64,000 bases of DNA from Chrysomallon squamiferum (GCA_012295275.1 CM022678.1:1240001-1304000); one strand, 5' to 3'. Positions 15,844-51,685 are shown, numbered from the stretch's first letter. Numbers and translations: made by a program. Notes: generated by a model from the letters alone, not told the origin.

Positions 15844-15912
<69 letters not shown>

Positions 15913-17569: not shown

Positions 17570-18280
17570 TACATACACACAGATATTATTAAGGTTATGC
17601 TCTTAACGATGATATAATAGTATATATAAAATAACTGACATTCAGTGTCTAGCTTTAATAATTATCTTATTTACTGAAACTAAATAATAAAATAAAATAA
17701 GATTAGAACAACAAAAACAGTTTGAAAAAAATTAAGTGTGTTTTTTTTTGTTTTCTAGAATATTCATGAGGAACGATTACCCATATTTTCAGATTTACTG
17801 GTTTTTCTATATTTAGAAACGTTTTTACACAACTGAAGTAATATCATCTGTCAAAGAAGTTTTTGATTTTAAAACAGTCGATTTTGAGGCGAAGGGAGAC
17901 ATTACAATTCATTATTATTGTTTTTTATGTTTGTGATTTTTTGTTCCACTTTATTATAATTTAAAAGACATAAACACGTGTTGGCAGAAAGTTTATTTGG
18001 TAGTAGATCTGTATTTATTTATTTATAATAATTTTTGCAGGTTTGTTTTTAATAATAACAAAGATACTCTGAAAAAAATATGTATAAAAAGACATTTTAT
18101 TTTTAGAATAAAAAAAAAAATTTCTTAATCGAATTTGATTTTCTGTTTCTAGTGTCAGTTTAAATGGAATCGAAATATAAATATTATAATTCAGAAATGT
18201 AAATCAATTAGACATTTTATTTCGTGGAATATTTGTGATTCTTCGAAGCGATATTACATAAAATAAAATGTTCTGCGACT
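17570..18280 (+). repeat. Direct segmental duplicate of about 25250-25970
   Basis: Shared aaaataactgacattcagtg...tcttatttactg, tataaaaagacatt and ttagacattttatttc...gatattacataaaataaaatgttct. Confidence 0.85.
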
Positions 18281-18439
18281 TGTATATTTAATGTTGAAAA
18301 AATCATCTTTTAATTATATAAAGAAATTATTTGTAAAAAAATAACATTATGTAAAGGTATTAATGGTTGAACACTTCAGTATTTACAGATCTTTATAAAG
18401 CTGCCAACAACGGCGGAGACGAAATTGGGACTCATACCT

Positions 18440-19900
18440 GGCCAAGACAGAATTTTTAAAGTGTTGTTTTAGAGGTGGGCAATGACAGTGAGTGAATAAA
18501 TTTTGTGGACATCACTTCTGTATGCATTCCTTTTGTCTGCCATATTTGTGCTTCTGACGTTCTCCTTCTTGTCATATTTACTGTGAATGACTCAGCTGTT
18601 GAAAAGAGTGGAGTTAAATATTCATATCTGATGCACGAACATTCTACAGTTTGGAAAAAACAAACATGGGTGCAAATTGGTAAGTTTTCATTGATAATTT
18701 TTGGTATTAATATTGAGAAAACTGAGTATAAAACTTACTAAAACTATTCTGTATATTTTTCTTATTTATATAATACAATTTAGTGGTGGTGTTGAGAAAA
18801 CTAAAAATATGCTTACTAAAACTATTCTGATATCATCTATACATTTGTATTGTTTATATTATACTTTAGTGTTAGTATTGAGAAAATCAAGAATATGTCT
18901 TACTGAAACTATTCTGTATATTTTCCTTATTTATATATTACCACTTAGTGGTTGTGTTGAGAAAACTAAAAATATGCTTACTGAAACTATTCTGATGTTA
19001 TCTATCATTAGCATTGTTTATATTACAATTTAGTGTTAGTATTGTCAAAACTAAGAATATATCTTTCTGAAACTATTCTATACATTTTCATTGTTTATTT
19101 AACTTAATTTAGTATTAGTGTTAATAAATATGTAAATATAAATTGTTGAAACAATTTTTACATTGTTTGTTCTACTTAATTTAGTAACATTATTCTTATG
19201 ATATGTACATTTACATTGTTTATATAGAATAGGTTGATATTCAGGCTGACTAAGAATATAACTTATTAAAACTGTTTTGATAATTACTAGGTTTATGTAA
19301 TTTAATAGTGCAGTTCAGAAAACATACTGTATATGCTTTGTGATAATGATTTCATTTTTGCAGGTCAACCATTAGAGATTTAACCAGAGTTGTTTTAGAA
19401 TTTTTTTTTAACAAGAGAGATGATTCTTCGTCAGGGAGTATGACAAATTTGTTTATATCTTTATCAATACCCTATACATCAGTATAATGTTAACTATTTT
19501 ACTATTTCTAAACTAACACTTTTTTATTTTCATTGATAATAAATATACAATTTAAAGAGGTTTAGGTACTGTCTGACAGCTGAAAACAGCAAAAATAAAA
19601 AATAATAAATACAAATAAATAAATAACTAAATAAAAAATACTTACTAATTATTGTTTCCTCATTTTATTCTTATATTGGCTATTTTTTGTTTTAATGTTG
19701 TAAAATAATGTTGAGGTCATCAGTCAATGTATCTATGTGTAATTAGTTAACAGTATTAAACACATTTGTTAAAACATACATTGCTCTATTCAGTAATACT
19801 GTTCAGATAGACTATGAATTTGTTCTGTGTTTGAAACACTGCTATTACATCCAATAATTATATCTTATTCTCAGTATTTTGTAGGTAAAAACATTTTTAG
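18440..19900 (+). repeat. Paralog of 36420-37700 (intron preceding the microexon array)
   Basis: ggacatcactt...ttccttttgtctgcc...ctgtgaatgactcagctgttgaa...gagttaaatattcatatctgatgcacgaacat is shared. ORFs 18505 and 36474 are homologous. Confidence 0.88.
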
Positions 19901-19951
19901 AAATTATGCATTTGTGAATGATAAAAAAGTATTTGCTCTGTTTCACTTCAG

Positions 19952-22666
19952 GACAACTGACAGCTAACGTATCTCATTCTGGTTCTACTGAAATAAGCGG
20001 TAACACTATAAACCGTAAGTTAAAAACTGAAAGTTTTCTCCTCTCTACATGTTTAATAGATAACACAGTACTTAGTAGACATTAGTACTTTTGTCAAACA
20101 TTGTGAACAACATAGAAACGTGCACATCAAATATAGACACAATATATACAAAAAGAAAATTAGTATTTCAACCACTGCTATATATCCGACAGTGATATCT
20201 AATTCTCAGAATTTTTCAGCTAAAACATTTTTAGAAATTATGCATTGAAGTTGTGAGTTATAAATAGGTATTTACTTTGTTTCGCTGTAGGACTGTATAT
20301 TAATAAATGTACCTCTGGGTTTTATGATCTATGGTGAACTAGGATGGTATCCCATTTGTACTTCTATAAAAGTAAGAATGACAACCTTTTGGAGGAACCT
20401 AATTTGTCAAAAAAACCAAAAAAAAAAAAATATTTCCTCACAACTATATTATTTAATGCATGTTATCGATTCTCCTTGGAACAGATTTGGAAAATATATT
20501 TTAGATGATTGTGGTTTAACATATATTTGGATATATCTCAACTTTGATAATGTTAAATGGATACGAGAAACGATATCCAAAATATTACATGATCAATTTC
20601 AACAGTTTTGGAAAAAATCTAAATGAAACGTCTCCAAAGGATATTAATTATAAACATTTAAAAGATGAATTGAAATAATAAACTGTCTTACTTTGCTGTC
20701 TCAAAAGAATGCCAATGTGTTATGTAAATTTAGAACCTCGAAGGCTAAACTTCCTATTGAAACTGGACAATGGTCTGATATTCTAAGAGAAAACAGAAAA
20801 TGTCATATCTGTAATCTTAACAAAATTAGAGATGAATATCACTATATATTTGAATGTAATGATCCTGTATTATTAAATGAGAGAAAAAGTATACCAGACA
20901 AATATATGAGACATCCAAATATAATTTCATATAATAATTTGCTTAACAGTAAAAAGCTATAGTTGTTAATAAGAACTATATGTGAGAAATTATGTCCTTC
21001 ACGTTAAACTTCCACGCTTCTGCATTTTAATTTTGTTTCTATATATCTGTAATACATTCTTCTCTGTACTGCAACCCTACAATTTATGAGAATAAAGTCA
21101 TTGTAATTGTCATTGCCAGCAAACACAATTCATTCTGGTTCTACTGAAGTAGGAAATAGGCATGAATCCAGTATGTTATAAACTGAAAGTTTTCTTTTCT
21201 CTACATGTTTAATAGATAACAGACTACTTAGTAGTCATTAGTATGTGTCTCTCAGACACTGTGACGTGAACAATGTAGAAACGCACAGGTAAATACACAG
21301 ACCAATACGTATAAACATACATATCTGTAACTAGTCTTAGCACATACACAGAATACATACACACAACACATACACACATATATGCACACACATGCATATG
21401 CATACATGCATTACACAGACACACAAATTTAGACACAGTGTATGTATATTAAACTGTATGCTGCTATATTTCTACATATACACTAAAAATGTGTTTCAAA
21501 CACTGGAACTACATTTAATAATTATATCTAATTCTCAGAATTTTGTATGTAAAAACATTTTTAGAAATTATGCATTGAAATTGTGAATTATAAAAATGTA
21601 TTTAATCTGTTTCACTACAGGACCAGTGACAGCAAACATATCTCATTCCGGATCTGCTCAAATAGGAAATAACTATGTATCCGGTAAGTTAAAAACTGAA
21701 AATGATCTCTTCTCTACATGTTTCATAGATAAACATAATACATAGTAGACATTAGTACTTTTCTGTCTCACACTGTGACTTGAACAACATAGAAGCATGA
21801 ATACAAATACATAGACACAATACACATAAATATACATACCTGTACCTAGATGTAGCACATACACAGAACACATACATATACATGCAGATTCATTACACAG
21901 AGACAAACAAGTATATTCAGACAGAGACACAGTGTATGCATGTTAAATGTATATTGTCATATCTCTACACATAGATTACAAAGAGGATTTTGTTTCAAAA
22001 CTGCTGCTTCATTCAGTAATTATTTCTAATTCTCAGTATTTTGTAGGTAAAAAGATTTTCAGAAATTATGCATTTAAATTGTGAATTATAAAAATGTATT
22101 TGCTCTGTTTCACTGCAGGACAAGAGTCAGGAAACATATCTCATTCCGGATCTGCTCAAATAGGAAATAACTATGTAGCCGGTAAGTTAAAAACTGAAAA
22201 TGTTCTCTTCTCTACATGTTTAATAGATAACATAATACATAGTAGTCATTAGTACATTTCTGTCTCACACTGTGACCTGAACAACATAGAAACCTGCACA
22301 TAAATACATAGACACAATACATATAAACATAAATACCTGTACCTAGATGTAGCACATACACATGCAGAAATGCATTACACAGACATACACACAAATATAT
22401 TCAGAGACACTATGTATGTTAAGCTGTATACTGACATATCTCCACACATACACATATATAGAGATAGATAGATTTTTTTTGAAACACTGCTATACATCCA
22501 GTAATTATTTTTAATTCTCAGTATTTTGTACGTAAAAGCATTTTTAGAAATTATGCATTGAAATTGTGAATTATAAAAAAGTATTTACTCTTTTTCACAG
22601 GAGGACAACAGCCAGGAAACATATATCATTCTGGTTCTACTAAAATAAGCGGAAACACTATAAACC
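19952..22666 (+). CDS. Microexon array I: five 63-nt phase 1-1 RHIM-like exons of a truncated paralog (one disrupted by a LINE)
   Basis: Exons 19952-20014 (GQLTANVSHSGSTEISGNTIN), 20291-[LINE]-21170, 21621-21683 (GPVTANISHSGSAQIGNNYVS), 22119-22181 (GQESGNISHSGSAQIGNNYVA) and 22604-22666 (GQQPGNIYHSGSTKISGNTIN). Each has a pyrimidine tract plus AG acceptor and a GTAAGT/GTATGT donor. Confidence 0.6.
20298..21114 (+). mobile_element. 5'-truncated LINE (RTE-X-like) 3' fragment, degenerate
   Basis: ORF pieces MIYGELGWYP...DDCGLTYIW...LHDQFQQFW and LCKFRTSKAKLPIETGQW...ENRKCHICNLNKIRDEYHYIFEC are typical LINE ORF2 C-terminus. Frameshifted. Ends in AATAAA plus a (cattgt)-like tail. Confidence 0.85.
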
Positions 22667-23199
22667 GTATGTTAAAAACTGAAAGTTTTCTCTTCTCTAC
22701 ATGTTTAATAGATAACACAATACATAGTAGGCATTAGTACTTTTCTGTCAGGCGCTGTGACCTGAACAGGCTGCACGTGTGATCCACTGTGGCTAAAGGA
22801 GACGAGTGCAGATTGTTATACATGAAAATATTTAGAATCCTCATCTAATATCTTTTCCAATACATCATGTACAGATCTTGAAATTGACTATGTTGTAACA
22901 GTTTCTAGTACTGATGTCACCATTTCATCACAAGAAACACATTTGTTAAAAATCACTTAGAAAGTTATAAGTAGCCTGCAACAGAATACCCAACCAATAA
23001 CTTGCTGAAACACTGAGCAGTTTTATATCATAGAATTGAAAAAACGTTGTTATGTTGATTACAGCAGGTCAGAAATATGAAAATGTTTGTGTCCAGATGC
23101 TAAAAGGCATGCTCGATGACAGATTAAAAACATCCTATAGACGAAATATATATAATTAGGAAACTGTTGAAATAATTTTAGATATATTATTATTATTAT

Positions 23200-32927: not shown

Positions 32928-34653
32928 TTTGTGTGTGTGTTAGTTTAAGCTATATTTTAGCTTACTATAAGAAAATAATATATAGCTCGCTCCTGTATAC
33001 TGCTCATATCTTTTTGTGCATGTATACAAACTAGTTTGACAAACGTTATACTTAAAAGTGATGTAAAATGTGTTTACACTGTCACCAAGCAACCCCACTA
33101 CGTGTAAACCTGTCACGTGCCCTCTTACAAAAATGTCACCTGACGTGTCTAAGCAGACGATTCACACAGAGAGAGCAAACGGCGTGTAATTTGTGACAAT
33201 TCGTTAGTTGAAAAGATTCCAATTTTATTTCGATTTCTATTGCAGGTAGGGAGAACTTACATTACACTGCCTCATATCAACAAGTATGAACTAATAATAC
33301 TGCATTATAAATAAATAAATTAGCAGCATTTACGAATATGTTGTTCAGTTATAAAGCAGTCGAAAGAGGAATAAATATCCAAGGAATATCTGTTTAAAAA
33401 AAAAAAAAAAAATAATAATAATAATAAAAAATAAACATTAAGTGTTCTCGTCAAATGTTAATGCTCATATAAATTAGTCTATTTAGGAAGTTATAAAAAG
33501 TGTAGAATAATTATGATTAACTAGCACGCACACACACATACATACACACACACATATCAGCCTTACTCTTGTAATGCTAAATAACACAAAAATTAAATGT
33601 AATTAACTTTTCTCTTTCTCAGTTTGACCGCTCTCGAGAGTAGAACCTTCACTCGTGTTTATTTTGTTGTTGCTATACATTTTTAAAATAATTATATAAA
33701 ACTATTTTAAGACCAAAACCAGCAGTTAAATATGAAAGAAGTAACTGAGTAATAATTATATATGTCCGTATGAATGTATGTATGCCTTCATGTATGTCTC
33801 TATGTATGTATGGATGGATGTGTTTGTGTGTGTATATATGATTGTGTGTGTGTGTGCCTGTGTTTGTGTTTGTACCGATTAACCAGTTATTTTTCTTTTC
33901 TTTTCCTTTGTGAAAGACAGTTTCAGCTAATAAACAGAAATTTTATTTGAAACAAACATAGGCATATGACTAAACGAAAAGCTTATCATTATATTTGATA
34001 TTAACTGTTTGTATCAGATACAGAGAAATAGAGGTGATTTCTTGAAGTCAGTGTAAGGTACGTTTAGTAAATGTTGAAAACTGTTATAAAAGTATAATAA
34101 TTTACAAACAACAACCACAGTGATAAATCGTTTTTATTTTTATATTTTACTGGAACATTGTAGTTATAATATCTTACATTTTTTCTAACAGTCATGTTTC
34201 TCTTCTTTTATTACACAGAAGTGTGCGAGTGTGCGTGTGTGTGTGTGTGTTACCTCTTGGTGATAGGCGTATTATTAAAAAGTCTGTTTTAAATCTATCA
34301 CTCCAGTCTTGTCTTCTTCTTCTTCTTCTTCTTCTTATTATTACTATTAATTCTATTTTTCTTTTTCTTTTTAAAATTTTATTTTTTATTTTATTTTATT
34401 TTATTTTTTGTACCATTAATAATATTATAATAAATTTTTTGCATTGTTGTATTTGTTCGTAACTGTTAATGCCCGCATTGATAATACAGGAAAACATTAA
34501 ATATCCAAACAAAAGGTATATTTTAAGTAGGTATGCAGGAAGTAGGCCTGACGCTATGACCGGTTTTGTTCTGCCTTACGCATCAGTAAATAAATAAATA
34601 AATAATGAAATAAAAACTTATAACTAAACAAAGGAAACACAGATTGTGATAAC

Positions 34654-34784
<131 letters not shown>

Positions 34785-35111
34785 GTAAAATTTACTTTTT
34801 GAATTTGAAATTTTAATATGGAGTTTTTTCTCTTTAAAATTATTATTGACATACTAGGTCATATAAGATTCACAATAGCTATGTGCTAAATTTCTCAACA
34901 TTATTAAACGAAAATTTATTATTTATTAAATTACATCCCTAAGATAAATTAAATCAAAAGATAAATACTATAATACAGTTTTGTAAATGTCTGAGAATGA
35001 AATGTTTATTATTAAAACTTAATGTTGTCGCTGTCGTTAACTTTTAAAGTGGACAAGTTTGAACTTGTTAATCACGATCTCCGGTCACTGAACGGAACCA
35101 CGTGATTTAAA

Positions 35112-35142
35112 ATGGCGGAATTATTGCATCCGAAAAAGAAAG
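35112..35142 (+). CDS. Predicted first coding exon of the RHIM-like/nSTAND3/ankyrin gene (MAELLHPKKK, phase-1 end)
   Basis: Strong Kozak context aaaATGGcg in a CpG-containing patch, with CACGTG just upstream and donor AAG|gtaaag at 35143. Phase 1 fits all downstream exons. Confidence 0.55.
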
Positions 35143-35169
35143 GTAAAGAAATTTGTAATGCACTTTATG

Positions 35170-35214
<45 letters not shown>

Positions 35215-37729
35215 AATCCCGATAAACATTGAAATTACTTTGATTCTTTATAATAATTTGATTTTTACTGAATGAAACAACTATTAAGTACTATTGATGA
35301 TCATAAATTATTGTGAATACTGCAGAATAATTTTTAAAAGCATTAAACTTTTCTAACCTCTTAAACAATGTTGTTGTTATTATTATTGTTATTATTATTT
35401 TTATTATTATTATCATTATTATTATTATTACTGTATAATATCACTTTTTTCAGTAATGTAATTATATTCATCCCATCTGAAAATTAAACTACTAGGATTT
35501 TAGACATTGTTGACCCAGTGTTAAGTTAATTTAAAGTCCAATCCAATAAACAGTTAATCGTTGAATATTTACACTGTAATATTTATATATTTTTTTATAC
35601 AGACATAAGAGGAAATGTGTCTGTACATTAACATGAAATCATGAAGTGATCAAGATTTGGAATCGAGAATGTAGCAGATTACTGAAAACTGAAAGCTACA
35701 AATTCGCAATGTGTGTTTATACAAGCAGACACAGTGAAGAAAAAATGATTATGTACAAGATGTGACAGCATCATCCTGATTTGAGGTATTGTTCACTATT
35801 TTATAATTATGTTTTATGTCCAGAAATGAAAAGTTTACCATCTTCATATGTTGTATTAAAATAACTAACTAAAAACAGTTACATATGAGCAGTTAGAGAG
35901 GAAAGTGTGGTCTACTGAAGAACACGATGTTAAGTTATCTAGGAGTTTAAACTGAACAAAAAAGAGTGACACCTGCTTTAAATTCATTGTAATACTAGTC
36001 TGGAAAATGCAGAGTGATCAATAACACAAGTGTTACAAAGACATTACAGTAAACTGAGTTGTGAAAGAACCCACAGGCAACAACGAAATGTAAAAGTTGT
36101 GTCAAACTATTTTTATCACCAGTCCCATCTAACACTGAAAACATAATATCAACTGCAGAGTTCATAAAATAGTTTAAGAAAGCTGATTCAGAGAGAAAAT
36201 GTTACTTTGAGTCTCTAGATTACATCTGTAGTTAAAGGATTCAGTGACAAGTAAACATTCAGCTGCTTCCAACATCCAACTCATCTCTCCAGTTAAATGT
36301 TAGTATTGTCAAGTAATCAGTTGCTGTCATTTCCTGTGCTAAGCTGATTCCACTTCCTTTGTTTATATAAAATGTTTTGATGAGACCCAAATGTGCTCCA
36401 ATAAATTAAAAAATAGACTCCTGACTAGCCAGGGCAGAATTGTTAAAGCCTTGTTTTACAGGTAGACTGTTAGTTGATGAAATTACTAATGATAGTGAGT
36501 GTAGTCAAGCTGATACCAAATATATTTGCTGGACATCACTTTTGTATCATTCCTTTTGTCTGCCGTCTTTGTGCGTCTCACGTTCTCCTTCTTGTCATAT
36601 TTACTGTGAATGACTCAGCTGTTGAATACAGTGGAGTTAAATATTCATATCTGATGCACGAACATCCTGCAGTTTGGATAAATTATGGATACAAATTCGT
36701 AGGGTTTCACTTATAGTTTTTGTATAACTTAATTTAGTACTGATATTAAGAAAACGGAGCATATAACTTAGTAAAATTATTCTGATATTATCTATATATT
36801 TTTATTGTTTATTCAGCTTCTCATTTTCATTGTTTATTGAACTTAATTTAGTATTAGTAATGAAAAATGTTTCAATATAAGTTATTGAAACTATTTTTAT
36901 ATTGTTTATTTACTTAATTTATTAAAAGCATTATTATGATATGGGAATTTACATTGTTTATAGAGCATAGTTTGATATTAGGGTTAACAAAACTAAGAAC
37001 ATAACCAAGTAAAACTATTTTTATTATTAGATTTACATAATTTAATAGGGCAGTTCAGAAAACATACTATAAAGGCTTTGTGATTATGATTATACACGAG
37101 AGGAGGTTTTTCAGTTTTTCCTAACAGCGGTGTTTCTCTGTCAGAGAGTATGACAAAATTGTTTATATCTTTATCAGTGCAGTATACCTCAGTTTACTGT
37201 TTTCTTTCTGATAAGAAATTCTAAATGGACAAAATTATTATTTGTGTGTATAAATGTAGCTTTTCAATTTATTGTTTACTTTTTATTATCATTTGTAAAT
37301 TGACTGATACTGATAATAAATTAACAATTCAAACGGATTTATATACAGTCTGACAGACGAAAACATCAAAAAGGAAAATAAAAAGATAAATGATGAGAAA
37401 AAATATAAACATTTACACACTAATTACTCCCGACTATTACAATTACTGTGTTCACCATTATTTACTGTAATACTTAGGTCATATGTCACAGCATCTATGC
37501 ATAATTAGTTAACAATATTGAGCATATTGTATACAGCAATACTGTTTAGATATATTGTATTACACTGTACCCTGCCAAATCTATACATACAGATAAAAGC
37601 TTTTTTTTTTTTTCAGACATTACTACTGTGGTTAATAATTATGTCTAATTCTCACGATTTTGCAGGTAAGAACATTTTGGGAAATTATGCTTTGAAATTA
37701 TGAATTATAACAAACATATTTCACTGCAG

Positions 37730-40700
37730 GACAACAGCTTGCAGACACATCTCATTCTGGTTCTTTTCAGTTAGGAAATAACTATGTATCTGATAAGTTT
37801 AATAGATAACAGAATACACACTAGTCATTAGTAGTACTTTTCTGTCAGACACTGTGACCCGAACAACATTGAAACATGCACAATATACAATGTATATTTA
37901 TCTGTACCTACATTTAGCACATACACAAAACACGTCCATATACACACATATACATGCAGACACACATACACAAATATATTCAAACAGAGTCACAGTGTAT
38001 GTGTGTTAAACTGAATGTTGTTATATCTCTACACATAGATTATAAATCTTTAATAATGTTATGTAATTCTCAGAATTTTGCATGTAAAAACATTTTTAGA
38101 AATTATGCATTGAAATTGTGAATTATAAAAATGTATTTACTCTGTTTCACAGCAGGACAACTGACAGCAGACGTATCTCATTCTGGTTCTATTGAAATAA
38201 GACATAACACTATAAACCGTAAGTTAAAAACTGAAAGTTTTCTCTTCCCTACATGTTTAATAGATAACACAGTACATAGTAGTCACTAGTAGTACTTTTC
38301 TGTCACACATTGTAACGTGAACAACATAGAAACATACACATAAATTCATACACACAATGCATACATACCTGTGCTTACATTTAGCACACACACAAAATAT
38401 CTACCTGCACACATGGAGTAAACAGACACACACAAATATATTCAGACGCAGTGTATGTATGTTCAACTGCATGTTGTCATATCTCTATATCTAGATACAA
38501 AAAACTGCTACTATATTTAATAATGATATCTAATTCTGAGAATTTTGCAGGTAAAAACATTTATAGAAATTATCCATTGAAGGTGTGAATTATAAAAATG
38601 TATTTTCTCTGTTTCACTGCAGTACAACAGTCAGAAAACCTACGTCATTCAGTTTTTTCTCAAATAGGAAATAACTATGGATGCGGTGAGTTAAAAACTG
38701 AAAGATTCTCTTCTCTGCATGTTTAATAAATAACAGAATACACATCACAGTAGTCATTTTCAGAGACACAGTGTATGTATGTTAAAGTGTATACTGTCAT
38801 ATCTCTACGTAAAAACTAAAACATTTATTTGTTTTGTATTTCAAACACTGCTATATCTAATTCTCTAAAATTTCCAGGTAAAAACATTTTTGGAAATTGT
38901 GCATTGAAGTTAAGAATTATAAAATTTTTTCACTGCAGGACAAAAGCCAGGAGACACATCTCATTCTGGTTCTTTTCAATTAGGAAATAACTATGTATCT
39001 GATAAGTTTAATAGATAACAGAATACACACTAGTCATTAGCAGTAATTTTCTGTCAGACACTGTGACCCGAACAACATTGAAACATGCACAATATACAAT
39101 GTATATTTATCTGTACCTACATTTAGCACATACACAAAACATGTACATTATACACACATATACATGCAGACACACAGACACAAATACATTCAGTCAGAGA
39201 CACAGTGTTTGTGTGTTAAACTGCATGTTGTTATATCTCTACACATAGATACAAACTCCTACTATATTTAATAATTATATATAATTCTCAGAATATCTCA
39301 GGCAAAAATATTTTTAGAAATTATCCGTTGAAGGTGTGAATTATAAAAATGTATTTATTCTGTTTCACTGCAGTACAACAGTCAGAAAACATATCTCATT
39401 CTGGTTCTACTGAAATAAGAGATAACACTATAAACCGTAAGTTAAAAACTGAAAGTTTTCTCTTCGCTACATTTTAATAGATAACACAGTACATAGTAGT
39501 CATTAGTACTACTTTTCTGTCACACATTGTAACATGAACAACATAGAAACATGCACATAAATTCATACACACAATGCATACATACCTGTACTTACATTTA
39601 GCACACACACAAAATATCTACCTGCAGACATAGAGTAAACAGACACACACAAATATATTCAGACGCAGTGTATGTATGTTCAACTGCATGTTGTCATATC
39701 TCTATATCTATTTAATAATGATATCTAATTCTGAGAATTTTGCAAGTTAAAACATTTTTAGAAATTATCCATTGAAGGTGTGAATTATAAAAATGTATTT
39801 TCTCTGTTTCACTGCAGGACAACTAGGCCATTTAGCTGTTTTTCAAACAGGAAATAACTATGCATGCGGTGAGTTAAAAACTGAAAGTTTTCTCTTTTCT
39901 ACATGATTAATAAATAACAGAATACACATCACAGTAGTCATTTTCAGAGACACAGTGTATGTATGTTAAAGTGTATACTGTCATATGTCTACGTAAACAC
40001 AAAAACATTTATGTGTTTTGTATTTCAAACATTACTATATCTAATTTTGAGAATTAAATATAGCAGTATTTGAAATACAAAAAAATAAAAAAAAAAAAAT
40101 AAATAAAAATGTTTTTGTGTTTACGTAGACATATGACAGTATAAAGGTTTTTGGAAATTATGCATTGAAATTGTGAATTATAAAAAAAATATTTCACTGC
40201 AGGACAACAGCCAGCACACACATCTCATTCTGGTTCTTTTCAATTAGGAAATAACTATGTATCTGATAAGTTTAATAGAAACAGAATACACACTAGTCAT
40301 TAGTAGTACTTTTCTGTCAGACACTGTGACCCGAACAACATTGTCTGCACAATATATACAATGTATATTTATCTCTACCTACATTTAGCACATGCACAAA
40401 AAACGTACATAAACACACATAACATGCAGACACACAAACACACATAACATGCAGACACACAAACACAAATATATTCAGAGTCACAGTGTATGTGTGTTAA
40501 ACTGCATGTTGATATATCTCTACACATAGATTATAAATCTTTAATAATTATATATAATTCTCAGAATTTTGCAGGTAAAAATATTTTTAGAAATTATGCA
40601 TTGAAATTGTGAATTATAAAAATGTATTTACTCTGTTTCACAGCAGGACAAGAGCCACCAAATATATATCATTCTGGTTCTACTGAAATAAGACATAACA

Positions 40701-42707
40701 CTATAAACCGTAAGTTAAAAACTGAAAGTGTTCTCTTCTTTACATGTTTAATAGATAACACAATACATAGTAGTCACTAGTAGTACTTTTCTGTCACACA
40801 TTGTAACGTGAACAACATAGAAACATACACATAAATTCATAGACACAATGCATACATACCTGTGCTTACATTTAGCACATGCACAAAATATCTACATGCA
40901 GACATGGAATAAACAGACACACACAAATATATTCAGACGCAGTGTATGTATGTTCAACTGCATGTTGTCATATCTCTATATCTAGATACAAAAAACTGCT
41001 ACTATATTTAATAATGATGTCTAATTCTGAGAATTTTGCAGGTAAAAACATTTTCTGAAATTATCCATTGAAGGTGTGAATTATAAAAATGTATTTTCTC
41101 TGTTTCACTGCAGTACAACAGTCAGCAAACCTAGGTCATTCAGTTGTTTCTCAAATAGGAAATAACTATGGATGCGGTGAGTTAAAAACTGAAAGTTTTC
41201 TCTTCTCTACATGTTTAATACATAAAAGAATACAAATCACAGTAGTCATTTTCAGAGAAACAGTGTATGTATGTTAAAGTGTATACTGTCATATGTCTAC
41301 GTAAACAAAAAAAAACATTTGGTGTTTTGTATTTCAAACACTGCTATATCTAATTCTCTAAAATTTCCAGGTAAAATCATTTTTGGAAATTATGGATTGA
41401 AGTTAAGAATTATAAAAAAATTCACTGCAGGACAACAGCTAGCAGACACATCTCATTCTGGTTCTTTTCAATTAGGAAATAACTATGTATCTGATAAGTT
41501 TAATAGATAACAGAATACACACTAGTCATTAGTAGTACTTTTCTGTCAGACACTGTGACCCGAACAACATTGAAACATGCACAATATACAATGTATATTT
41601 ATCTGTACCTACATTTAGCACATACACAAAACACGTCCATATACACACATATACATGCAGACACAGACACAAATATATTCAAACAGAGTCACAGTGTATG
41701 TGTGTTAAACTGCATGTTGATATATCTCTACACATAGATTATACATTTTTAATAATGTTATGTAATTCTCAGAATTTAGCAGGTAAAAATATTTCTAGAA
41801 ATTATCCATTGAATGTGTGAATTATAAAAATGTATTTAATCTGTTTCACAGCAGGACAACTGACAGCAGACGTATCTCATTCTGATTCTATTGAAATAAG
41901 AGATAACACTATAAACCGTAAGTTAAAAACTGAAAGTTTTCTCTTCCCTACATGTTTAATAGATAACACAGTACATAGTAGACATTAGTACTTTTCTGTC
42001 ACACATTGTAACATGAACAACATAGAAACATGCACATAAATTCATACACACAATGCATACATACCTGTACTTACATTTAGCACACACACAAAATATCTAC
42101 ATGCACACGTGGAGTAAAGAGACACACACACAAATATATTCAGACGCAGTGTATGTATGTTCAACTGCATGTTGTCATATCTCTATATCTAGATACAAAA
42201 AACTGCTAATATATTTAATAATGATGTCTAATTCTGAGAATTTTGCAGGTTAAAACATTTTTAGAAATTATCCATTGAAGGTGTGAATTATAAAAATGTA
42301 TTTTCTCTGTTTCACTGCAGTACAACTTTCAGCAGACTCATGTCATTCAGTTGTTTCTACAACAGGAAATAACTATGCATGCGGTGAGTTAAAAACTGAA
42401 AGATTTCTCTTTTCTACATGTTTAATACATAACGGAATACACATCACAGTAGACATTTTCAGAGACACAGTGTATGTATGTTAAAATGTATACTGTCATA
42501 TGTCTACGTAAATGTTGTTGTTGTTTTTTTGTATTTCGAACACTGCTATATCTAATTATCAAAATTTTGCAGGTAAAAACATTTTCAGAAATTATGGATT
42601 GAAATTGTGAATTATAAAAATGTATTCACTCTCTTTCACTGCAGATCATCAGCCAGCAAACGTATCTCATTCTTGCTCTTTTCAAATAGGAAATAAATAT
42701 GTATACG
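37730..42707 (+). CDS. Microexon array II: 13 phase 1-1 RHIM/HET-s-like exons, (A-B-C)x4+A, higher-order period about 1.21-1.26 kb
   Basis: A: 37730-37792, 38939-39001, 40203-40265, 41431-41493 (donor ATAAGT) and 42645-42707 (GTAAGT). B: 38156-38218, 39374-39436, 40647-40709, 41855-41917 (GTAAGT). C: 38623-38685, 39818-39868 (51 nt), 41114-41176, 42321-42383 (GTGAGT). All follow ttcac(t/a)gcag acceptors and all are stop-free in phase 1. Confidence 0.75.
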
Positions 42708-44662
42708 GTAAGTTAAAAACTGAAAGTTTAATAGATAACAAAATAGATAATAGATGTTTAATAGGTAACAATACACAGTAGTGATTAGTACTTTTCTATC
42801 AGACACTGTGATCTGAACAACATAGAAACATGCACAGTTTATATGTATTATTTCTAATTTATATAAAAAAATACATATTTCTAAAAACGGTTACGGAAAA
42901 GAAAATGATTGTGCAAATATTTTTCGGATAACCCATTAATAGCTTAAATAGAATTTACACACTCACACATACACAGACAGATAATAACATATAAACAAAT
43001 AAACACACAGGTATTAACACATACAAATACGTTCAGGCATAGGATAAGTTCTGACTGAGATTTTCTTCTTAAACTGTTAATATAACTCAACATAAATTAA
43101 ACATGACTATATGCCTGTCATTATTATCATCTGTAAATACTAAATATACTGCAGAGTATACTTAACAACAACAAGAAGAACAATAACAACAACAACAATA
43201 AACAACGGGGCAGTTAACGCAATTGCAAGGAATCTGTAATTAACACCGTCGTCACGTAACCAAATCAGAACCCTGCAACGGGCGTAACACTGTTCCCCAA
43301 AAAAGCACTAACATACAGTCCTCCCTGTATCGGATAGATAGATACCCGATTTTTGTCCGTTCTAAGGATATTCAGGGAACAAGGCCATATATGTATTTAT
43401 ATTTAACATTAAATCATTAGAAATACAAAAACACAAGTTTAGATTTAAAGAATATTTGTATTATATGATCTAACAATAGTTATTTACCGAGTAAGCTTAC
43501 AATGCTTCCACTTCCAATTACAAAAAGTTTTACGCCACAATATCACTCTCACGACATACGTGAACATGTGGGAGATATTAAAGATGTTTAAACTAGTACA
43601 TCCCAAGATGTATTTGAATATGCAAGAGTATCAAATTAACGTGCTGCTTAGTGGGACGTTGACATAACAATCAGTTAAAGTTAACATCGGTTTTGACCTC
43701 AAATTCCCACTATTCTCACCCATTGTTTTAGAGATAATAACCCACAGTTAACTTCGATCAGTCTGATCTCAGATTGCCAGCTATTTTCCAAAATAATGGT
43801 TATACTATTTCAATACATAAACATATACATTTTTTTATTTAGGAAAAACCACATAGGATGTGTTTTAACATTCCTTCCCCAGAGTGGTGCCGAGACTGGT
43901 TTCAACTTCAGCAGACATGCAGACGCTAGTGGGTTCCCCAAAACAATATTTCATAATAGCTTATATATTTTTTAAGGAAATATGACATCCATTACGTATT
44001 AAAGAGGAGACTGGCTTCTTCACCACACTTAGCTTATGTAATTCTTAAGCTTTACATATTAAAGATGAGAGTCTGGTTGTCTCTATCACACCAACAATAA
44101 CTCTAAAAAAGAACATTAGTGATAAGAAACAATGGCAGTACTTTTGAAAGTAGTAGGAGTAATTATATGAAATAAATAACAAAGATGGTGTCAGGGCATT
44201 TCCCCACGGATATTCCCCTCGTGACAGTTCCTACCGTCTACCTGTTTTAACTGTGAAATATCCTCATAGTCTGAGTCATTAATAAGGTCTTTTATGGGGC
44301 CAAACATCGCTTAAATTTGGGAATAATGAAACAGTATAAATTATTTTTGTGTTGTTGTTTTTTTGTTTATCAACAAAATTAACTATTTTAAAGTTCACGT
44401 TGTTCTAAAGTTCATGTCAACAAACTACAATCATTATCCAAATATCTGGCTGTTTCTGGATGTTCCGGAAAAACCCAGCAAAAAACAAATACAGTAACAC
44501 TGCACCAGATACTGTTGTGTCTACAGAGACATCACCCAGCGGCTTCAGACTGCGGCAACAGAGACTGCCAGGACTTTCTCCATGGTGCTGCACACAATCT
44601 CCACATGTAAAATGTTTCAAGTAAACAATTTATGTCATATACAATTATCTTTTTATCTCCAG

Positions 44663-44716
44663 ATAATCTGTACAAGACACCAGTAAAGTCTGATGGAACA
44701 GCACCCAATATCAAAG
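44663..44716 (+). CDS. 54-nt phase 1-1 linker exon (DNLYKTPVKSDGTAPNIK)
   Basis: Acceptor tctttttatctccag| and donor AAAG|gtattt; joins in frame to the 44989 exon. Confidence 0.7.
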
Positions 44717-44988
44717 GTATTTTGTTATTTTATTTTTTAATTATTTTTTAAATAGTTTTCAAAGATATTCATAAACAGAAAGAAAATCATCTCGTTACAT
44801 TTACTTCATCTACAATTGTGACATCTTTCTATCATCATTAAATTCTGATGAACTAAAATTATGACAAAAAACTACTGCTTTATTTCAAAAACTTCACATC
44901 TGATGAACAGTCAGAAATTATTTATATTGTAAACTATGTTTTAAACAGTCACTAACAGATACTATTTTTTGTTTATGTTGTAATATAG

Positions 44989-47900
44989 AGTCAACCAGGT
45001 CATTTTTGAACTCAGTTGACTGGAGAGTCTATGTTGAAACAAGAGCAGAGAAAAGAGGTTTGAGACTTTTGAAGAAGTATGGTGTTGTGATTGTAGTAGG
45101 AAGTCCAGGTTCAGGAAAGACAACTCTTGCTTTGAGCATGATGAGACAGATAGAAATAGAAGAAAAAAGAGAATCTTACTCGCTGAGTCATCACACTGAA
45201 TTCAATGACATCCCTGTATCTGGAAATAAGAAATGTACTGTTCTAATTGATGATATATTTGGTAAGACTAATCTTGTTTCAGATTTTATAGACTCATGGA
45301 AACAGAAATTTCCAAAGCTATGGAATCTTGTTCACGACAGATCTTTGAAATGTATTATTACTTTAAGAAAGCAAATATTTTCAGAAAATGAAACAAGTTT
45401 GAAAAATTTTGATCTCTTTAATGAGAATCATGTTCTTGATCTGCAGAATGATGACTGTTGTCTGAATTATTATGAAAAGGAAGAAATTCTAAACAAATAT
45501 CTTAAACAAAAGGATGTTTCAATGAATGAAATTGATAAAAGGACTGTCATTAAAAGTTCATGTACAGAGTTAGGATTTCCTCAGGTGTGTGTGTTTTATG
45601 TTAATAATACAAGTGATGCACAGAAAAGAGAAGTTGAGTTTTTTATGAAACCTATAGAATATTTGACACTGCAGCTGGAAAATATGAAAAAAGACAAAAC
45701 TTTACAGATCAATTACCTGGTTCTACTGCTGATCTTGTTCAAACAAGGCAGTCTCAGCATTGATTCACTGGACCCATTTAAAAATGACACTGACAGTGAC
45801 ATAATAAATTTAGTAAGACAACTAGAGCGAGTCTGTCAGAGTGTAAAAAACACTGGTCTTACAGAGATCAAGGAAACAGCTGATGTACTGTGTGGTACCT
45901 ATTTGAAGTGCTGTGACAATAAATACACATTTATTCATCAGTCTGTGTTTGACTGTTTGTTTCTGATGTTTTCATCAAAGTTTCCAAAGAAAGCAGCAGA
46001 ATTGCTAGAAGTGTGTCCTGTCTCCATCTTGTTAGAATATGTTGTTACGCCTGGAGTGTCTAACAAAAGTCAGATTGCAATGACTGTGAGACCTGACTGC
46101 TTTGATTTTCTTGCTCGCAGATTTACTGACTTGCTGGCATCAGACAATTTCATAGAAATTTGTTCACATCCATCACTGAAAGACGAAGACTTTTTAAAAT
46201 ACCTGATAGAGGAAAAATACTTTTATGGTAGGTTGTCTGAAATTTTACAGCAAAGACTATCTGTAGAACATCAAAAGCAATATTGTTATATTTCATTTGT
46301 ACATGTAAACTCAACTGAAATTATTAATTATATTTCATATCTTATTGACAATGATTCTAGGTACGCATTTTCTTTGAATCTGGAAGGAAATGTTATAAAT
46401 TCAACATCTGTTCCAAGTGAGTGTATCGCGAATAGACAAAGAACATTGTCAAAATATTTCACATCAAAACTGTTGGAAACGGACTTAATAGACATGAAAA
46501 AAGAACTTTTGGATATTTCTTGTTTTTTTGGTGATGAAGATGTTGTGAGAATGTTGCTAGAATCAGGTGTTATTCCAACATTTGATACATTCAGTGCAGC
46601 TGCTTCTTCAATAACAGACAGTGTAACCATACTCAAAGAACTGTTACAGTATAAAAAGGACATGAAATTGAATGTGTGTTCTGACTTGTTATTTATGTCA
46701 CTTTGGTCAGGTAACATGAACATTGCCTGTCTGTTGGCTGACATGATAAACAAAGAGAAAAACAACAGTGAAATCAAGGAGGAAGCTGTAAAACTGCTAT
46801 TGATTAAGTTCTATAGACATAAAAAGGCGGTTGAGAAGTGTCTGGGAGAATCATTAACGTTTAAAGTCGATGTAAACCCTCTGTTTAAGAAACTGATTAC
46901 CTCTGATATAATAAACAAAATTAAACGCATTGCTATCATTGCTGCTGGTCACAATACTTCAGATTTTATAAAAGAAATAGTGAAACTGAAACCTGATTGT
47001 ATAAATGATGAGAACAGAGAGAAAGTACTTTTAGCAGCAGCAATGTGGGGATCTACTGATACAGTGAATTTTCTCATTGACCATATAGGTAATGATACAG
47101 ATGAGAACAACTGGAAGAAAGGTGAAGTACTGAAAGTTGCAGTGATGTTTAACAGTGTAGATGTTGTTCAGTGTCTTCTTGATAAAGGAGCTGATCCTAA
47201 TGTGAATGTAGCTGTTAACAAGAATTTGGTTCAGTTGTTTAAAGAGGAAACTAGAGTGGAAATGTTGCCTTCCGACACACTCCTCCACATTTCAGTTCTG
47301 CGTGGTGACTTAGATATGGTAAAATCACTGATAGAGAGAAATGCTGATGTTAATGCAGTAAACAGAGATGGGAAAACTGCACTCCATGAGACTGTAAAAG
47401 CAGTGACACACAGAAAGGAAATAGCTTTGTTGTTACTGGAAAATGGTGCTGATATTAACATAAAAGATAAAACAAAAAATACAGCATTACACATAGCATC
47501 TCAAATTGACATAGATGTTGTGAAAAACATAGTAAAAAAAGGCGTTGAAATAAATATAACTAACACTCCAGGTGAAACTCCTCTTTTTGTATCCTTAAAC
47601 ACCAACAGACGGGAAATAGCTTCGTACTTACTAGAACAAGGAGCTGATTTCACTTTAACAGATAATGATAAAAATTCTGTTTTACATTTAGCAGCTAAAC
47701 ATGGAAATATAGAAATTGTGACAGGACTGATTGAAAAAGGTTTTGATGTAAATACTAGAAACAGTCGAGGTGAAACTCCTCTTTTTAAAGCTCTAATCTC
47801 TCGTAATAGCAAAGTAATTTGGTATTTACGTGCACATGGAGCTGATATTAAAATAACAGACAGCGATAACAATTCTATTTTGCACAAAGCAGCTAAATAT

Positions 47901-50900
47901 GGAAATATCGAAATTGTGACCGCACTGATTGAAAAAGGTTTTGACGTGAATATTAGAAACAGTCGAGGTGAAAGTCCTCTTTTTACAGCTCTTACTCACA
48001 AGCAACTTCATCCGTCTCTGAAAAATGAAAAATGTAAAGTAGCTTTGTATCTGCTGGAAAATGAAGCTGATCCTAATTTGACAGACAGTGACAGCAATTC
48101 TGTTTTACACCTAGCAGCCGCACGTGGAAATATAGAAATTGTGACTGCACTGATTAAAAAAGGTGTTGATGTAAATGCTAAAAACAGCCAAAATCGAACA
48201 CCTGTTTTTATAGCTGTTGAGGCTGAACAGACAAAAATAGTTTTGTATTTACTGGAACATGAAGCTGATCCTAATTTAACAGACAAAGATAACAATTCTG
48301 TTTTACACGTAGCAGCTGTAACTGGAAATATAGAAATTGTGACAGCACTGATTGAGAAAGGCTTTAATGTAAATATTAAAAACAGCCAAGGTCAAACTCC
48401 TCTTTTTTACACTCTTATTGAATGTACAGGTAATCCATTTCTGTTGGATGAAAAATGTCAAGTATTTTTCTATTTACTGGAACATGGAGCTGATTTTAAT
48501 TTAACAGACAAAGATAACAATTCTGTTTTATATTTAGCAGCTAAATATGGAAATCAAGAAATTGTGTCTGCACTGATCAAAAAAGGTGCTGATATAAATA
48601 TTAAAAACAAACATGGTCAAACTCCTCTTTTTTTCCCTTTTATTGAATGTAAACTTGATCCATCACTGATGGACGAAAAATGTAAAGTATTTTTGTATTT
48701 ACTGGAACATGGAGCTGATCCTAATATTAGAAACAATGATAACAGTTCTGTTCTACACACAGTCGCTGCACATGGAAATCTAGAACTTGTGACTGCACTG
48801 GTTGAAAAAGGTGTTGATGTAAATATTAGAAACAAACATGGTCAAACTCCTCTTTTTTCGACTTTTATTCACTGTAAACTTGATCCATCTCAAATGTATG
48901 AAAAATATAAAATAGTTTTGTATTTACTGGAACATGGAGCTGATTATAATTTAACAGACAATGATAACTATTCAGTTTTACACCTAGCAGCTGCGTATGG
49001 AAATCTGGAAATTGTGTCTGCACTGATCGAAAAAGGTGCTAATTTGAATATTAGAAACACACACGGGGAAACTCCACTTTTTTACATTTTTATTGAATGT
49101 AAATTTGATCCATCACTGATGGATAAAAAATATAAAGTATTTATGTATTTACTGGAACATGGAGCTGATCCTAATATTAGAAACAATGATAACAATTCTG
49201 TTCTATACGCAGTCGCTGCATATGCAAATCTAGAAATTGTGACAGCACTGATTAAGAAAGGTTGTGACGTAAATATTAGAAACAGCCAAGGTAGAACTCC
49301 TCTTTTTGCAGCTCTTGCTTCCTGTCACCGTGATCCATCTCTGAATATTGAAAAATATAAAGTATTTTTCTATTTACTGCAAAATGGAGCTGATCCTAAT
49401 TTAACAGACAATGATAACAATTCTGTTTTACACACAGCAGCTCAATTTGGAAATACAGAAATTGTGGAAGCACTGATTGAAAAAGGTTGTGATGTAAATA
49501 TTAAAAACAGCCAAGGTAGAACTCCTCTTTTTGCAGCTCTTGTTTTCTGTCTGCGTGATCCATCTCTGAATACTGAAAAATATAAAGTATTTTTCTATTT
49601 ACTGCAAAATGGAGCTGATCCTAATTTAACAGACAATGATAACAATTCTGTTTTACACGGAGCAGCTGAATTTGGAAATACAGAAATAGTAAAAGCACTG
49701 ACTGAGAAAGGTTGTGATGTAAATATTAAAAACAGCCAAGGTCATACTCCTCTTTTTGCAGCTCTTGTTTTCTGTCTGCGTGATCCATCTCTGAATATTG
49801 AAAAATATAAAGTATTTTTCTATTTACTGCAAAATGGAGCTGATCCTAATTTAACAGACAATCATAACAATTCTGTTTTACACGGAGCAGCTCAATTTGG
49901 AAATATAGAAATAGTAAAAGCACTGACTGAGAAAGGTTGTGATGTAAATATTAAAAACAGCCAAGGTCAGACTCCTCTTTTTGCAGCTCTTGTTTTCTGT
50001 CTGCATGATCCATCTCTGAATATTGAAAAATATAAAGTAATTTTCTATTTACTGCAAAATGGAGCTGATCCTAATTTAACAGACAATGATAACAATTCTG
50101 TTTTACACGGAGCAGCTGAATTTGGAAATATAGAAATAGTAAAAGCACTGACTGAGAAAGGTTGTGATGTAAATATTAAAACCAGCCAAGGTCAGACTCC
50201 TCTTTTTGCAGCTCTTGTTTTCTGTCTGCGTGATCCATCTCTGAATATTGAAAAATATAAAGTATTTTTCTATTTACTGCAAAATGGAGCTGATCCTAAT
50301 TTAACAGACAATGATAGCAATTCTGTTTTACACGTAGCAGCTGAATTTGGAAATATAGAAATAGTAAAAGCACTGATTAAAAAAGGTGTTGATGTGAATA
50401 TTAAAAACAGCCAAGGTAGAACTCCTCTTTTTGCAGCTCTTGTTTTCTGTCTGCATGATCCATCTCTGAATATTGAAAAATATAAAGTATTTTTCTATTT
50501 ACTGCAAAATGGAGCTGATCCCAATTTAACAGACAATGATAACAATTCTGTTTTATACGGAGCAGCTGAATTTGGAAATATAGAAATAGTAAAAGCACTG
50601 ACTGAGAAAGGTTGTGATGTAAATATTAAAAACAGCCGAGGTAGAACTCCTCTTTTTATAGCTGTTGCTTGCTGTCTGCGTGATCCATCTCTGAATATTG
50701 AAAAATATAAAGTATTTTTCTATTTACTGCAAAATGGAGCTGATCCTAATTTAACAGACAATGATAACAATTCTGTTTTACACGCAGCAGCTGAATTTGG
50801 AAATATAGAAATAGTAAAAGCACTGACTGAGAAAGGTTGTGATGTAAATATTAAAAACAGCCGAGGTAGAACTCCTCTTTTTGCAGCTGTTGCTTGCTGT

Positions 50901-51485
50901 CTGCGTGATCCATCTCTGAATATTGAAAAATATAAAGTAATTTTCTATTTACTGCAAAATGGAGCTGATCCTAATTTAACAGACAATGATAACAATTCTG
51001 TTTTACACGCAGCAGCTGCATTTGGAAATATAGAACTAGTAAAAGCACTGACTGAGAAAGGTTGTGATGTAAATATTAAAACCAGCCAAGGTCAGACTCC
51101 TCTTTTTGCAGCTCTTGTTTTCTGTCTGCATGATCCATCTCTGAATATTGAAAAATATAAAGTAATTTTCTATTTACTGCAAAATGGAGCTGATCCTAAT
51201 TTAACAGACAATCATAACAATGCTGTTTTACACGTAGCAGTTCAAGTTGGAAATATAGAAATTGTGAAAGCACTGACTGAGAAAGGTTGTGATGTAAATA
51301 TTAAAAACAGCCGAGGTAGAACTCCTCTTTTTAAAGCTCTTGCTTTCTGTCTGTGTGATCCATCTCTGAATATTGAAAAATATACAGTATTTTTCTATTT
51401 ACTGGAAAATGGAGCTGATCCTAATTTAACAGACAATGGTAACAATTCTGTTTTACACGTAGCAGTTCAAGTTGGAAATATAGAA
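44989..51485 (+). CDS. Giant exon: nSTAND3-type P-loop NTPase, helical/winged-helix region and long ankyrin repeat array (NLR-like receptor); 3' end lost in the gap
   Basis: Acceptor taatatag| (phase 1, ESTRSFLNSVDWRVYVETRA). YVET motif, Walker A GSPGSGKTT, Walker B VLIDDIFG, IITLRK, GFPQVC and FIHQSV. Dozens of GADPN..TPLF/SVLH..AA ankyrin repeats in an uninterrupted frame of more than 2100 codons. Confidence 0.93.
49260..51485 (+). repeat. About 10 near-identical 225-bp (75-aa, two-ankyrin) coding units
   Basis: gatgtaaatattaaaaacagccaaggt recurs at 49491, 49716 and onward (period 225). Confidence 0.95.
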
Positions 51486-51685
51486 NNNNNNNNNNNNNNN
51501 NNNNNNNNNNNNNNNNNNNNNNNNNNNNNNNNNNNNNNNNNNNNNNNNNNNNNNNNNNNNNNNNNNNNNNNNNNNNNNNNNNNNNNNNNNNNNNNNNNNN
51601 NNNNNNNNNNNNNNNNNNNNNNNNNNNNNNNNNNNNNNNNNNNNNNNNNNNNNNNNNNNNNNNNNNNNNNNNNNNNNNNNNNNNN
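51486..51685. other. Assembly gap (200 N)
   Basis: Run of n; probably a fixed-size placeholder. Confidence 0.99.

Follow-up and report, generated by a model that had tools for sequence, protein, structure and literature searches.

A tandem array of 13 short, exon-like units (37730–42707, plus strand) was found in a 64,000-nt stretch of the genome of Chrysomallon squamiferum (GCA_012295275.1 CM022678.1:1240001-1304000; hereafter, the window, from whose first letter all positions are counted). Based on the architecture of the array, the pattern of change among its copies, and the exons that flank it, we read it, with confidence slightly better than even, as a young, diversifying set of nine usable and four decayed mini-exons that likely codes for the repeats at the N-terminus of an nSTAND3-ankyrin receptor.

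Repeat finding together with direct reading gave the unit order A1 B1 C1 A2 B2 C2 A3 B3 C3 A4 B4 C4 A5, i.e., four ABC super-units of ~1.2 kb (1209, 1264, 1228, and 1214 nt) and a last A, which bears out the (A-B-C)x4+A array of symmetric 63-nt units described in an earlier note on this DNA. The super-units are 92–97% alike, and identities in the D repeat family reach 97%. The bases CAG stand directly 5' of the segment in all 13 units, and the segment is exactly 63 nt long in 12 of them; the sole length variant, as that note had also stated, is C2, which has lost 12 nt in frame. The units are as follows (a slash marks a predicted exon border):

37730..37792, plus strand: unit A1, 63 nt, QQLADTSHSGSFQLGNNYVS, ATAAGT at the donor position, without GT
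38156..38218, plus strand: unit B1, 63 nt, QLTADVSHSGSIEIRHNTIN, NAGNAG acceptor cacagCAG, donor C/GTAAGT
38623..38685, plus strand: unit C1, 63 nt, QQSENLRHSVFSQIGNNYGC, donor G/GTGAGT
38939..39001, plus strand: unit A2, 63 nt, QKPGDTSHSGSFQLGNNYVS, ATAAGT at the donor position
39374..39436, plus strand: unit B2, 63 nt, QQSENISHSGSTEIRDNTIN, B/C chimera, donor GTAAGT
39818..39868, plus strand: unit C2, 51 nt, QLGHLAVFQTGNNYAC, donor GTGAGT
40203..40265, plus strand: unit A3, 63 nt, QQPAHTSHSGSFQLGNNYVS, ATAAGT at the donor position
40647..40709, plus strand: unit B3, 63 nt, QEPPNIYHSGSTEIRHNTIN, NAGNAG acceptor, donor GTAAGT
41114..41176, plus strand: unit C3, 63 nt, QQSANLGHSVVSQIGNNYGC, donor GTGAGT
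41431..41493, plus strand: unit A4, 63 nt, QQLADTSHSGSFQLGNNYVS, ATAAGT at the donor position
41855..41917, plus strand: unit B4, 63 nt, QLTADVSHSDSIEIRDNTIN, NAGNAG acceptor, donor GTAAGT
42321..42383, plus strand: unit C4, 63 nt, QLSADSCHSVVSTTGNNYAC, donor GTGAGT
42645..42707, plus strand: unit A5, 63 nt, HQPANVSHSCSFQIGNKYVY, donor G/GTAAGT intact, full pyrimidine tract

The frame from base 3 is the only one that is open in all 13 units, with 0–3 stops in each of the other frames, and every unit is phase 1-1 with a length divisible by 3. The first two bases of a segment are GA, TA, or AT, and its last base is G in the A and C types and C in the B type. The eight possible junction codons specify Q, R, H, L, E, G, D, and V, so that a stop is never formed; the claim that any subset of units could be joined without a frameshift or a junction stop is thus correct. 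NAGNAG acceptors, which had been reported for some B units, are present in three of the four (cacagCAG in B1, B3, and B4; B2 has cactgCAG). The introns between units are 253–404 nt long, and the guanine-plus-cytosine (GC) content is 36.1% in the exon segments vs 29.2% in the array introns, in a window that is AT-rich overall (~30% GC). When the whole window was scanned for a pyrimidine tract, AG, 63 open nucleotides, and GTRAGT, all 10 plus-strand matches fell within this array and a second, paralogous one, and the minus strand gave one chance match. The second array is:

19952..22666, plus strand: paralogous partial array, units at 19952, 21621, 22119, and 22604, all 63 nt and open

To compare rates of change, we aligned 17 copies with their flanks (the 13 array units and the four intact paralog units). 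The exon segments diverge 2–3 times more than the flanking introns: the between-type p-distance is 0.311 in the exon vs 0.149 in the upstream 60 nt and 0.108 downstream, and 48 of 63 exon columns are variable vs 40 of 106 flank columns (Fisher p = 1.4e-6, with copies that are not independent). This divergence is frame-specific. Between-type p-distances at codon positions 1, 2, and 3 are 0.40, 0.33, and 0.14. Comparisons between types (60 pairs), within types (18 pairs), and with the paralogous array (52 pairs) give ratios of nonsynonymous to synonymous differences (pN/pS) of 2.2, 1.95, and 1.8, respectively. Parsimony on a neighbour-joining unit tree places 36/33/16 changes at the three codon positions (chi-square p = 0.016); changes per site number 0.80 at position 3 and 0.70 in the flanks vs 1.73 at positions 1 and 2 together (p = 2e-7 against position 3 plus flanks), and tree-based codon counts give 73 nonsynonymous and 12 synonymous changes (omega-like ratio 1.74, p = 0.043). 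Pseudo-frames laid over the flanks showed no three-base periodicity. All 17 copies are free of stops, an outcome reproduced by 0.88% of 20,000 neutral simulations, in which base frequencies were assumed, not measured; with the observed number of changes scattered on the unit tree, on average seven of the 17 copies gained a stop. Within types (four copies each, hence small numbers), variable sites by codon position are 6/5/1 in B and 5/9/2 in C, next to 0.10 per site in the flanks, and 2/2/2 in A1–A4.

Because a non-coding repeat would show no frame-specific pattern, the segments appear to be, or to have been, translated. The simplest reading is that they are translated in the proposed frame under diversifying selection, or were until very recently, and that A1–A4 have dropped out: we infer that the diversifying signal holds for the B and C copies after the ABC amplification and not for A1–A4, whose lack of a codon-position signal matches the loss of their donors (see below). 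The case for coding status is therefore an evolutionary one and does not come from RNA. The earlier note had argued for coding selection from the indels as well. Among the four super-units, there is one exon event (12 nt) vs 14 intron events (three of them multiples of 3), and the exon depletion is not significant (P = 0.29); coding selection is supported by the codon-position and open-frame tests, and not by the indels.

A donor consensus had been ascribed to every unit. This is correct for nine of the 13 units, which have a canonical GT donor (C/GTAAGT in B, G/GTGAGT in C, G/GTAAGT in A5), and incorrect for A1–A4, which all read G/ATAAGT at the donor and lack 8–12 nt of the pyrimidine-rich stretch 5' of the acceptor and ~32 nt 3' of the donor. 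Four ways around the missing donor were considered from the sequence and rejected. A GT inside the exon, 7 bases before the unit end, would give a 56-nt exon, and a GT 4 nt farther 3' would give a 67-nt exon, both of which shift the frame into stops; an AT-AC intron ending in ..tttcAC before the B units alters the junction and likewise shifts the frame into stops; and read-through reaches a stop after five codons. A1–A4 are thus probably out of splicing, which would leave a usable array of nine units.

Two further elements were observed near the splice sites. The 15 nt after the donor core (AGTTAAAAACTGAAA; 38219–38240 and equivalents) are invariant in 12 of 12 aligned non-A units and more conserved than the exons, and no conserved RNA structure was predicted around the donors, including this stretch. 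About 75 nt 5' of the acceptor of each unit (37640–42580) lies the element CAG/GTAAAA(A or C), an acceptor abutting a donor that resembles a recursive-splice or zero-length-exon site; its AG/GT is intact in nine of the 13 units, and it may be a splice regulatory site or what remains of a lost exon.

The gene to which the array would belong is defined by three further features:

35112..35142, plus strand: candidate first coding exon, 31 nt, ATG GCG ... AAG AAA G/gtaaag, encoding MAELLHPKKK plus 1 base, ending in phase 1
44663..44716, plus strand: candidate 54-nt phase 1-1 exon, ..NLYKTPVKSDGTAPNIK.., acceptor ctccag, donor AAG/GTATTT
44989..51485, plus strand: giant exon, entered in phase 1 (atatag/AG), with the nSTAND3 NTPase at ~45030–45506 followed by ankyrin repeats

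The giant exon lies in a single open frame of >2,100 codons (44907–51485, plus strand) that runs into an assembly gap (N, 51486–51685). Residues 42–200 of this frame match PF20720 nSTAND3 (E = 2e-25, 89.8 bits against a cutoff of 27.2), the NACHT model stays below its cutoff (22.4 vs 26.7 bits), and Ank_2 (E = 2.6e-59) and four other Ank models match as well. The predicted protein thus has both hallmarks of a STAND/NLR-like (nSTAND3) receptor, a P-loop STAND NTPase and C-terminal superstructure-forming repeats. Upstream coding exons are required, because the frame has no in-frame ATG 5' of the P-loop. The ATG at 35112 is in good context (aaaATGG), its exon ends in the phase of the array, and the ATG exon, the array, the 54-nt exon, and the giant exon are all phase-compatible with one another. 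According to this model, the units would form the 5' coding part of an NLR-like gene, between the ATG exon and the 54-nt and giant exons, and the mRNA would hold up to nine 21-residue repeats (B-C-B-C-B-C-B-C-A5) rich in S, N, Q, G, and H. At the N-terminus of the receptor, these repeats would serve for signalling or as an adaptor, and they may stack as rungs of a beta-solenoid or an amyloid-like structure; their number and identity would change by unequal crossing-over and gene conversion.

A young tandem array also makes up the ankyrin end of the giant exon, where a 225-nt (75-residue) unit is repeated 14.5 times (48234–51485) with 89% matches and without indels. Only a few positions (e.g., repeat residues 26, 29, and 54) set the last nine, near-identical units apart, and the array continues straight into the gap, so that 14.5 is the number of copies before it. 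Elsewhere in the window, an exon that matches FAM167 (Pfam, E = 5.6e-30) lies upstream at 7562–7819 (plus strand), and a second ankyrin-repeat gene fragment at the right end (62490–63998, minus strand) is probably another member of the same receptor family.

The best full-length relatives of the predicted receptor are nSTAND3-ankyrin proteins of the gastropod Gigantopelta aegis (39–41% identity over the NTPase region), followed by those of other molluscs. No PDB sequence relative of the NTPase was found at E <= 0.01, and NCBIfam P-loop models matched only below cutoff. One Gigantopelta protein (P0002), the nearest relative with an annotation, has, in a single predicted protein, a repeat-rich extension of ~420 residues N-terminal of the NTPase, in which residues ~90–260 consist of ~17 tandem copies of a 10-residue unit (..PVTANQGIG[ND]..) that precede nSTAND3. 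A long repetitive N-terminal extension is thus plausible for this family. The repeats themselves could not be related to the array: the unit profile gave no hhalign match, and BLASTP returned only a PVTAN 5-mer (E = 0.67, not significant). That 5-mer begins one paralog unit, which also contains QIGN and so recalls the P0002 unit. When the P0002 N-terminus was used as a query in the protein collection, no further isoforms were found.

If the ATG exon and the array instead formed a separate neighbouring gene, they would encode a small, stand-alone repeat protein that ends before 44.6 kb and acts as partner of the NLR-like gene. Such an arrangement, a short amyloid-motif protein beside an NLR, is the rule in fungi and bacteria according to Dyrka 2020 (preprint) and PMC4518210, and there would be room for a terminal exon in the 1955 nt that separate A5 from the 54-nt exon, where a candidate lies (cag/AGTATACTTAA at ~43155, then AATAAA). 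However, the donor of A5 is strong and matches the 54-nt and giant exons in phase, the NLR-like protein would be left without a matching N-terminal motif, and P0002 joins repeats and NTPase in one predicted protein. We therefore consider two separate genes very unlikely.

The DNA of the array shows a record of remodelling. B2 is chimeric, with a C-like upstream intron, its first 17 nt identical to C1, and the remainder B-like, which makes gene conversion evident. In the intron between C2 and A3, an inverted duplication (39974–40046 and 40052–40143) replaces the usual upstream part of unit A3; its longest gapless arms measure 52 nt with 88% complementarity, within ~70–90 nt mirrored on each side, and it would give a long hairpin in the pre-mRNA. 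That unequal crossover varies the number and identity of the repeats, as the earlier note proposed, is well supported by the alike super-units, the B2 chimera, the C2 deletion, and the inverted duplication, and the array would accordingly grow and reshuffle by unequal crossing-over and gene conversion. The paralogous array lies within a colinear duplicate (14995–22768 vs 33096–42836) that lacks both the ATG exon and the NTPase exon and is likely a truncated pseudogene copy. It contains B-like and A-like units, and a fifth unit is split by an insertion of ~0.8 kb (20290–21110) with open frames of 111 and 97 residues that match no Pfam family above cutoff.

Spliced as predicted, a unit encodes 21 residues (12 of 13 units), the same length as the HET-s repeat. 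Over all 13 units together, S accounts for 16% of the residues, N for 12%, Q for 10.5%, G for 8%, and H for 6.6%, with Q/N/S/G/T/H at 59% and charged residues at 9%. Position 8 is always H, S9 and N17 are almost invariant, and the peptides vary mostly in the first seven residues and around positions 10–13. The A units, A5, and two paralog units read ..SHSGS[FA]Q[LI]GN[NK]YV, the C units ..HSV[FV]SQIGNNYGC, and the B units ..SHSGS[IT]EIR[HD]NTIN, so that the A, C, and A5 types share a Q-[IL]-G-N-[NK]-Y core. The profile of the 17 units retrieved no RIPK, ZBP1, or HET-s chain among PDB sequences (E <= 10), only look-alikes of antibody complementarity-determining regions, and a search of the ESM Atlas returned only sub-threshold bacterial hypotheticals. 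The full G-phi-Q-phi-G signature is present in none of the 17 units, and phi-Q-phi-G in seven (A1–A4, A5, and two paralog units); C units have S-Q-I-G in its place, and B units lack any core. When the units are set against the HET-s-related amyloid motif (HRAM) in a register of our own, with G at position 19, the A units, A5, and two paralog units are hydrophobic at positions 16 and 18, whereas T or another non-hydrophobic residue occupies position 10 and Q position 5. The C units are hydrophobic at position 18 only (position 16 is S; C2 has F16 and T18), and the B units have no G.

The earlier note had called the units amyloid repeats; the Pfam and PDB-profile searches lend this label no support, and the likeness is one of resemblance. 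The amyloid or beta-solenoid reading is accordingly an analogy and not a finding. In its full form, it would hold that the copy-variable array encodes an N-terminal amyloid or beta-solenoid domain of an NLR-like protein, in which one 63-nt exon equals one 21-residue rung, the rungs diversify, and their number and identity are tuned by unequal crossing-over, recombination within exons (as in B2), and exon skipping. In this full form, the reading is quite unlikely.

Published RNA and metagenome data were also searched. A search for sequencing runs that share words with 37600–47599 turned up no RNA data set that contains the region; three metatranscriptomic runs of one study (X1–X3) each include a fraction of 0.04 of its words. 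Their contigs at 42140–42940 (5, 1, and 2 contigs) are partial 90–95% matches to intron pieces (42462–42505, 42583–42617, 42708–42729, and 42784–42836); none lies on C4 or A5 or has a joint at the predicted sites, a result that says nothing on expression. A 653-nt contig matches the intron on both sides of A5 with 208 other letters between, and looks like a whole unspliced paralogous unit from elsewhere in that organism. The contigs of these runs also carry 90–95% alike copies of the intron piece 42784–42823, an element found in every unit, with different flanks, and similar arrays or a dispersed element must therefore occur elsewhere in that organism. In metagenome contigs, the whole-unit DNA pattern gave 0 matches and the NTPase protein 0 confirmed loci. 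An NTPase-region search of the protein collection returned gastropod relatives and no protein from the source genome, and Rfam has no family in the window.

Several observations weigh against an N-terminal repeat region of the receptor. The 54-nt exon has an in-frame ATG just upstream, at 44632, from which the NTPase gene could begin without the array. The protein collection (110–350 and 1190–3787 residues) holds no spliced fragment of the gene, and Pfam assigned none of the 15 unit peptides searched to any family at E <= 10, including RHIM (PF12721) and HET-s, although the power of a search with such short peptides (20 residues) is low. The four donor-less units are the ones whose core (F-Q-L-G-N-N-Y) is most RHIM-like. 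Regarding the evolutionary tests, related copies enter the pairwise statistics more than once, significance in the event-based tests is only moderate (p = 0.016 and 0.043), gene conversion breaks the single-tree assumption, and the truncated duplicate array also keeps its open frames, so that openness alone is weak evidence.

Some of these points would fit a non-expressed relic, i.e., an intronic or upstream tandem repeat of pseudo-exons, either decayed or never in use, with the gene starting at ATG 44632 or splicing directly from 35142 to 44663. Besides the alternative in-frame ATG, such a relic would be consistent with the decay already seen in A1–A4 (loss of the donor and of some of the pyrimidine tract), with the truncated duplicate lacking any NTPase exon, and with RNA-library contigs that carry only unspliced intron pieces from elsewhere. 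However, only codon positions 1 and 2 show excess change, position 3 keeps to the rate of the flanks, and the B and C copies still show this signal after the latest amplification. In addition, the frame is open in all 17 copies, all parts are phase-compatible, and ATG 44632 is in poor context (tttATGt) compared to the ATG at 35112. We consider the relic rather unlikely. If the units are not translated, they would form a clean, recently amplified pseudo-exon array whose codon-position pattern records earlier coding selection.

A different role for a translated array would be that of a combinatorial isoform generator, in which all or most of the units are variably included cassette exons with NAGNAG wobble, and tissue or immune challenge would decide which of many N-terminal combinations are made. 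Each unit is phase 1-1 with sense junction codons, three B units have NAGNAG acceptors, and the peptides differ in their first seven residues and at positions 10–13, so that subsets would give different proteins. Skipping of any subset is thus arithmetically possible; this symmetry permits skipping and is not evidence of it. In addition, A1–A4 lack GT, the inverted-repeat search revealed no docking/selector-type complementarity but only the local inverted duplication, and there is no conserved structure near the donors. The nine intact units have strong GTAAGT or GTGAGT donors, long pyrimidine tracts, and short introns (253–404 nt); these features resemble those of constitutive exons and, taken on their own, would lead one to expect constitutive inclusion. 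An isoform generator of this kind is doubtful, and we retain the reading of the array as mini-exons of the receptor's N-terminal repeat region.

Arrays of small same-phase exons that encode one repeat each and expand by unequal crossing-over are found in titin PEVK, tropoelastin, and fibrillar collagen (54-nt exons), a layout in which units can be lost, gained, or skipped without a frameshift; these are structural proteins under purifying selection, whereas here the exons outpace the introns in an immune-receptor-like gene. Dscam, in which tandemly duplicated exon variants of a recognition and immune gene are chosen in a mutually exclusive manner by docking/selector pairing, is alike in its tandem exon variants, its immune or recognition function, and the resulting protein diversity. 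It differs in that no such pairing was seen here and the units are concatenated repeats, not alternatives for one slot. The repeats of curli CsgA (consensus of ~20 residues, rich in Q, N, G, and S) stack into amyloid and are similarly tandem and imperfect, but curli is bacterial, extracellular, and encoded by a single open reading frame. CsgA has five imperfect repeats (PMC12261475).

Short motifs at the N-termini of STAND proteins offer further parallels. The fungal HET-s motif spans 21 residues, of which G19 is invariant and those at 5, 8, 10, 16, and 18 are hydrophobic (PMC4518210). As in the array proposed here, it is a short N-terminal motif on a STAND/NLR protein with C-terminal repeats. 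Its rungs are non-identical, as are the units here, and the A units, A5, and paralog units contain a hydrophobic-Q-hydrophobic-G-N stretch. However, the fungal NLR carries one copy and the effector two, compared to 9–13 copies in one gene with one exon each; the host here is an animal, and a clear fit to the HRAM pattern is limited to positions 16, 18, and 19 in the A units, A5, and two of the paralog units and to 18 and 19 in the C units, with no G in B. In amphioxus (Branchiostoma), NACHT proteins have RHIM at the N-terminus in place of a death-fold domain, and RHIMs also occur two or three in tandem, as in ZBP1 (PMC4262963). RHIM is thus alike as a short amyloid motif of animal innate immunity that stands before a NACHT-type ATPase, sometimes in tandem. 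The core G-phi-Q-phi-G, which RHIM shares with PP and BASS3 (Dyrka 2020, preprint), occurs in its strict form in 0 of 17 units here, the NTPase is nSTAND3 and not NACHT at the Pfam threshold, and the 21-residue spacing has no linkers and a far higher copy number.

In the literature covered (subscription journals lie outside it), no one-repeat-per-exon array at the N-terminus of an animal NLR is described. Short amyloid motifs at NLR N-termini are known in fungi and bacteria, and in animals mainly as RHIM in single or 2–3 copies. If translated, the array would give a lophotrochozoan STAND receptor with a long, exon-modular, and fast-diversifying N-terminal repeat domain in addition to an ankyrin sensor end that is also a young array. 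Two questions would then be open to test, namely how the signalling threshold or partner specificity depends on the number and sequence of the repeats, and whether hosts diversify both ends of such receptors, signalling and sensor. If the amyloid analogy is true, the N-terminal domain would correspond to the signalling motifs of fungal NWD2/HET-S and mammalian RHIM in a modular and fast-evolving form.

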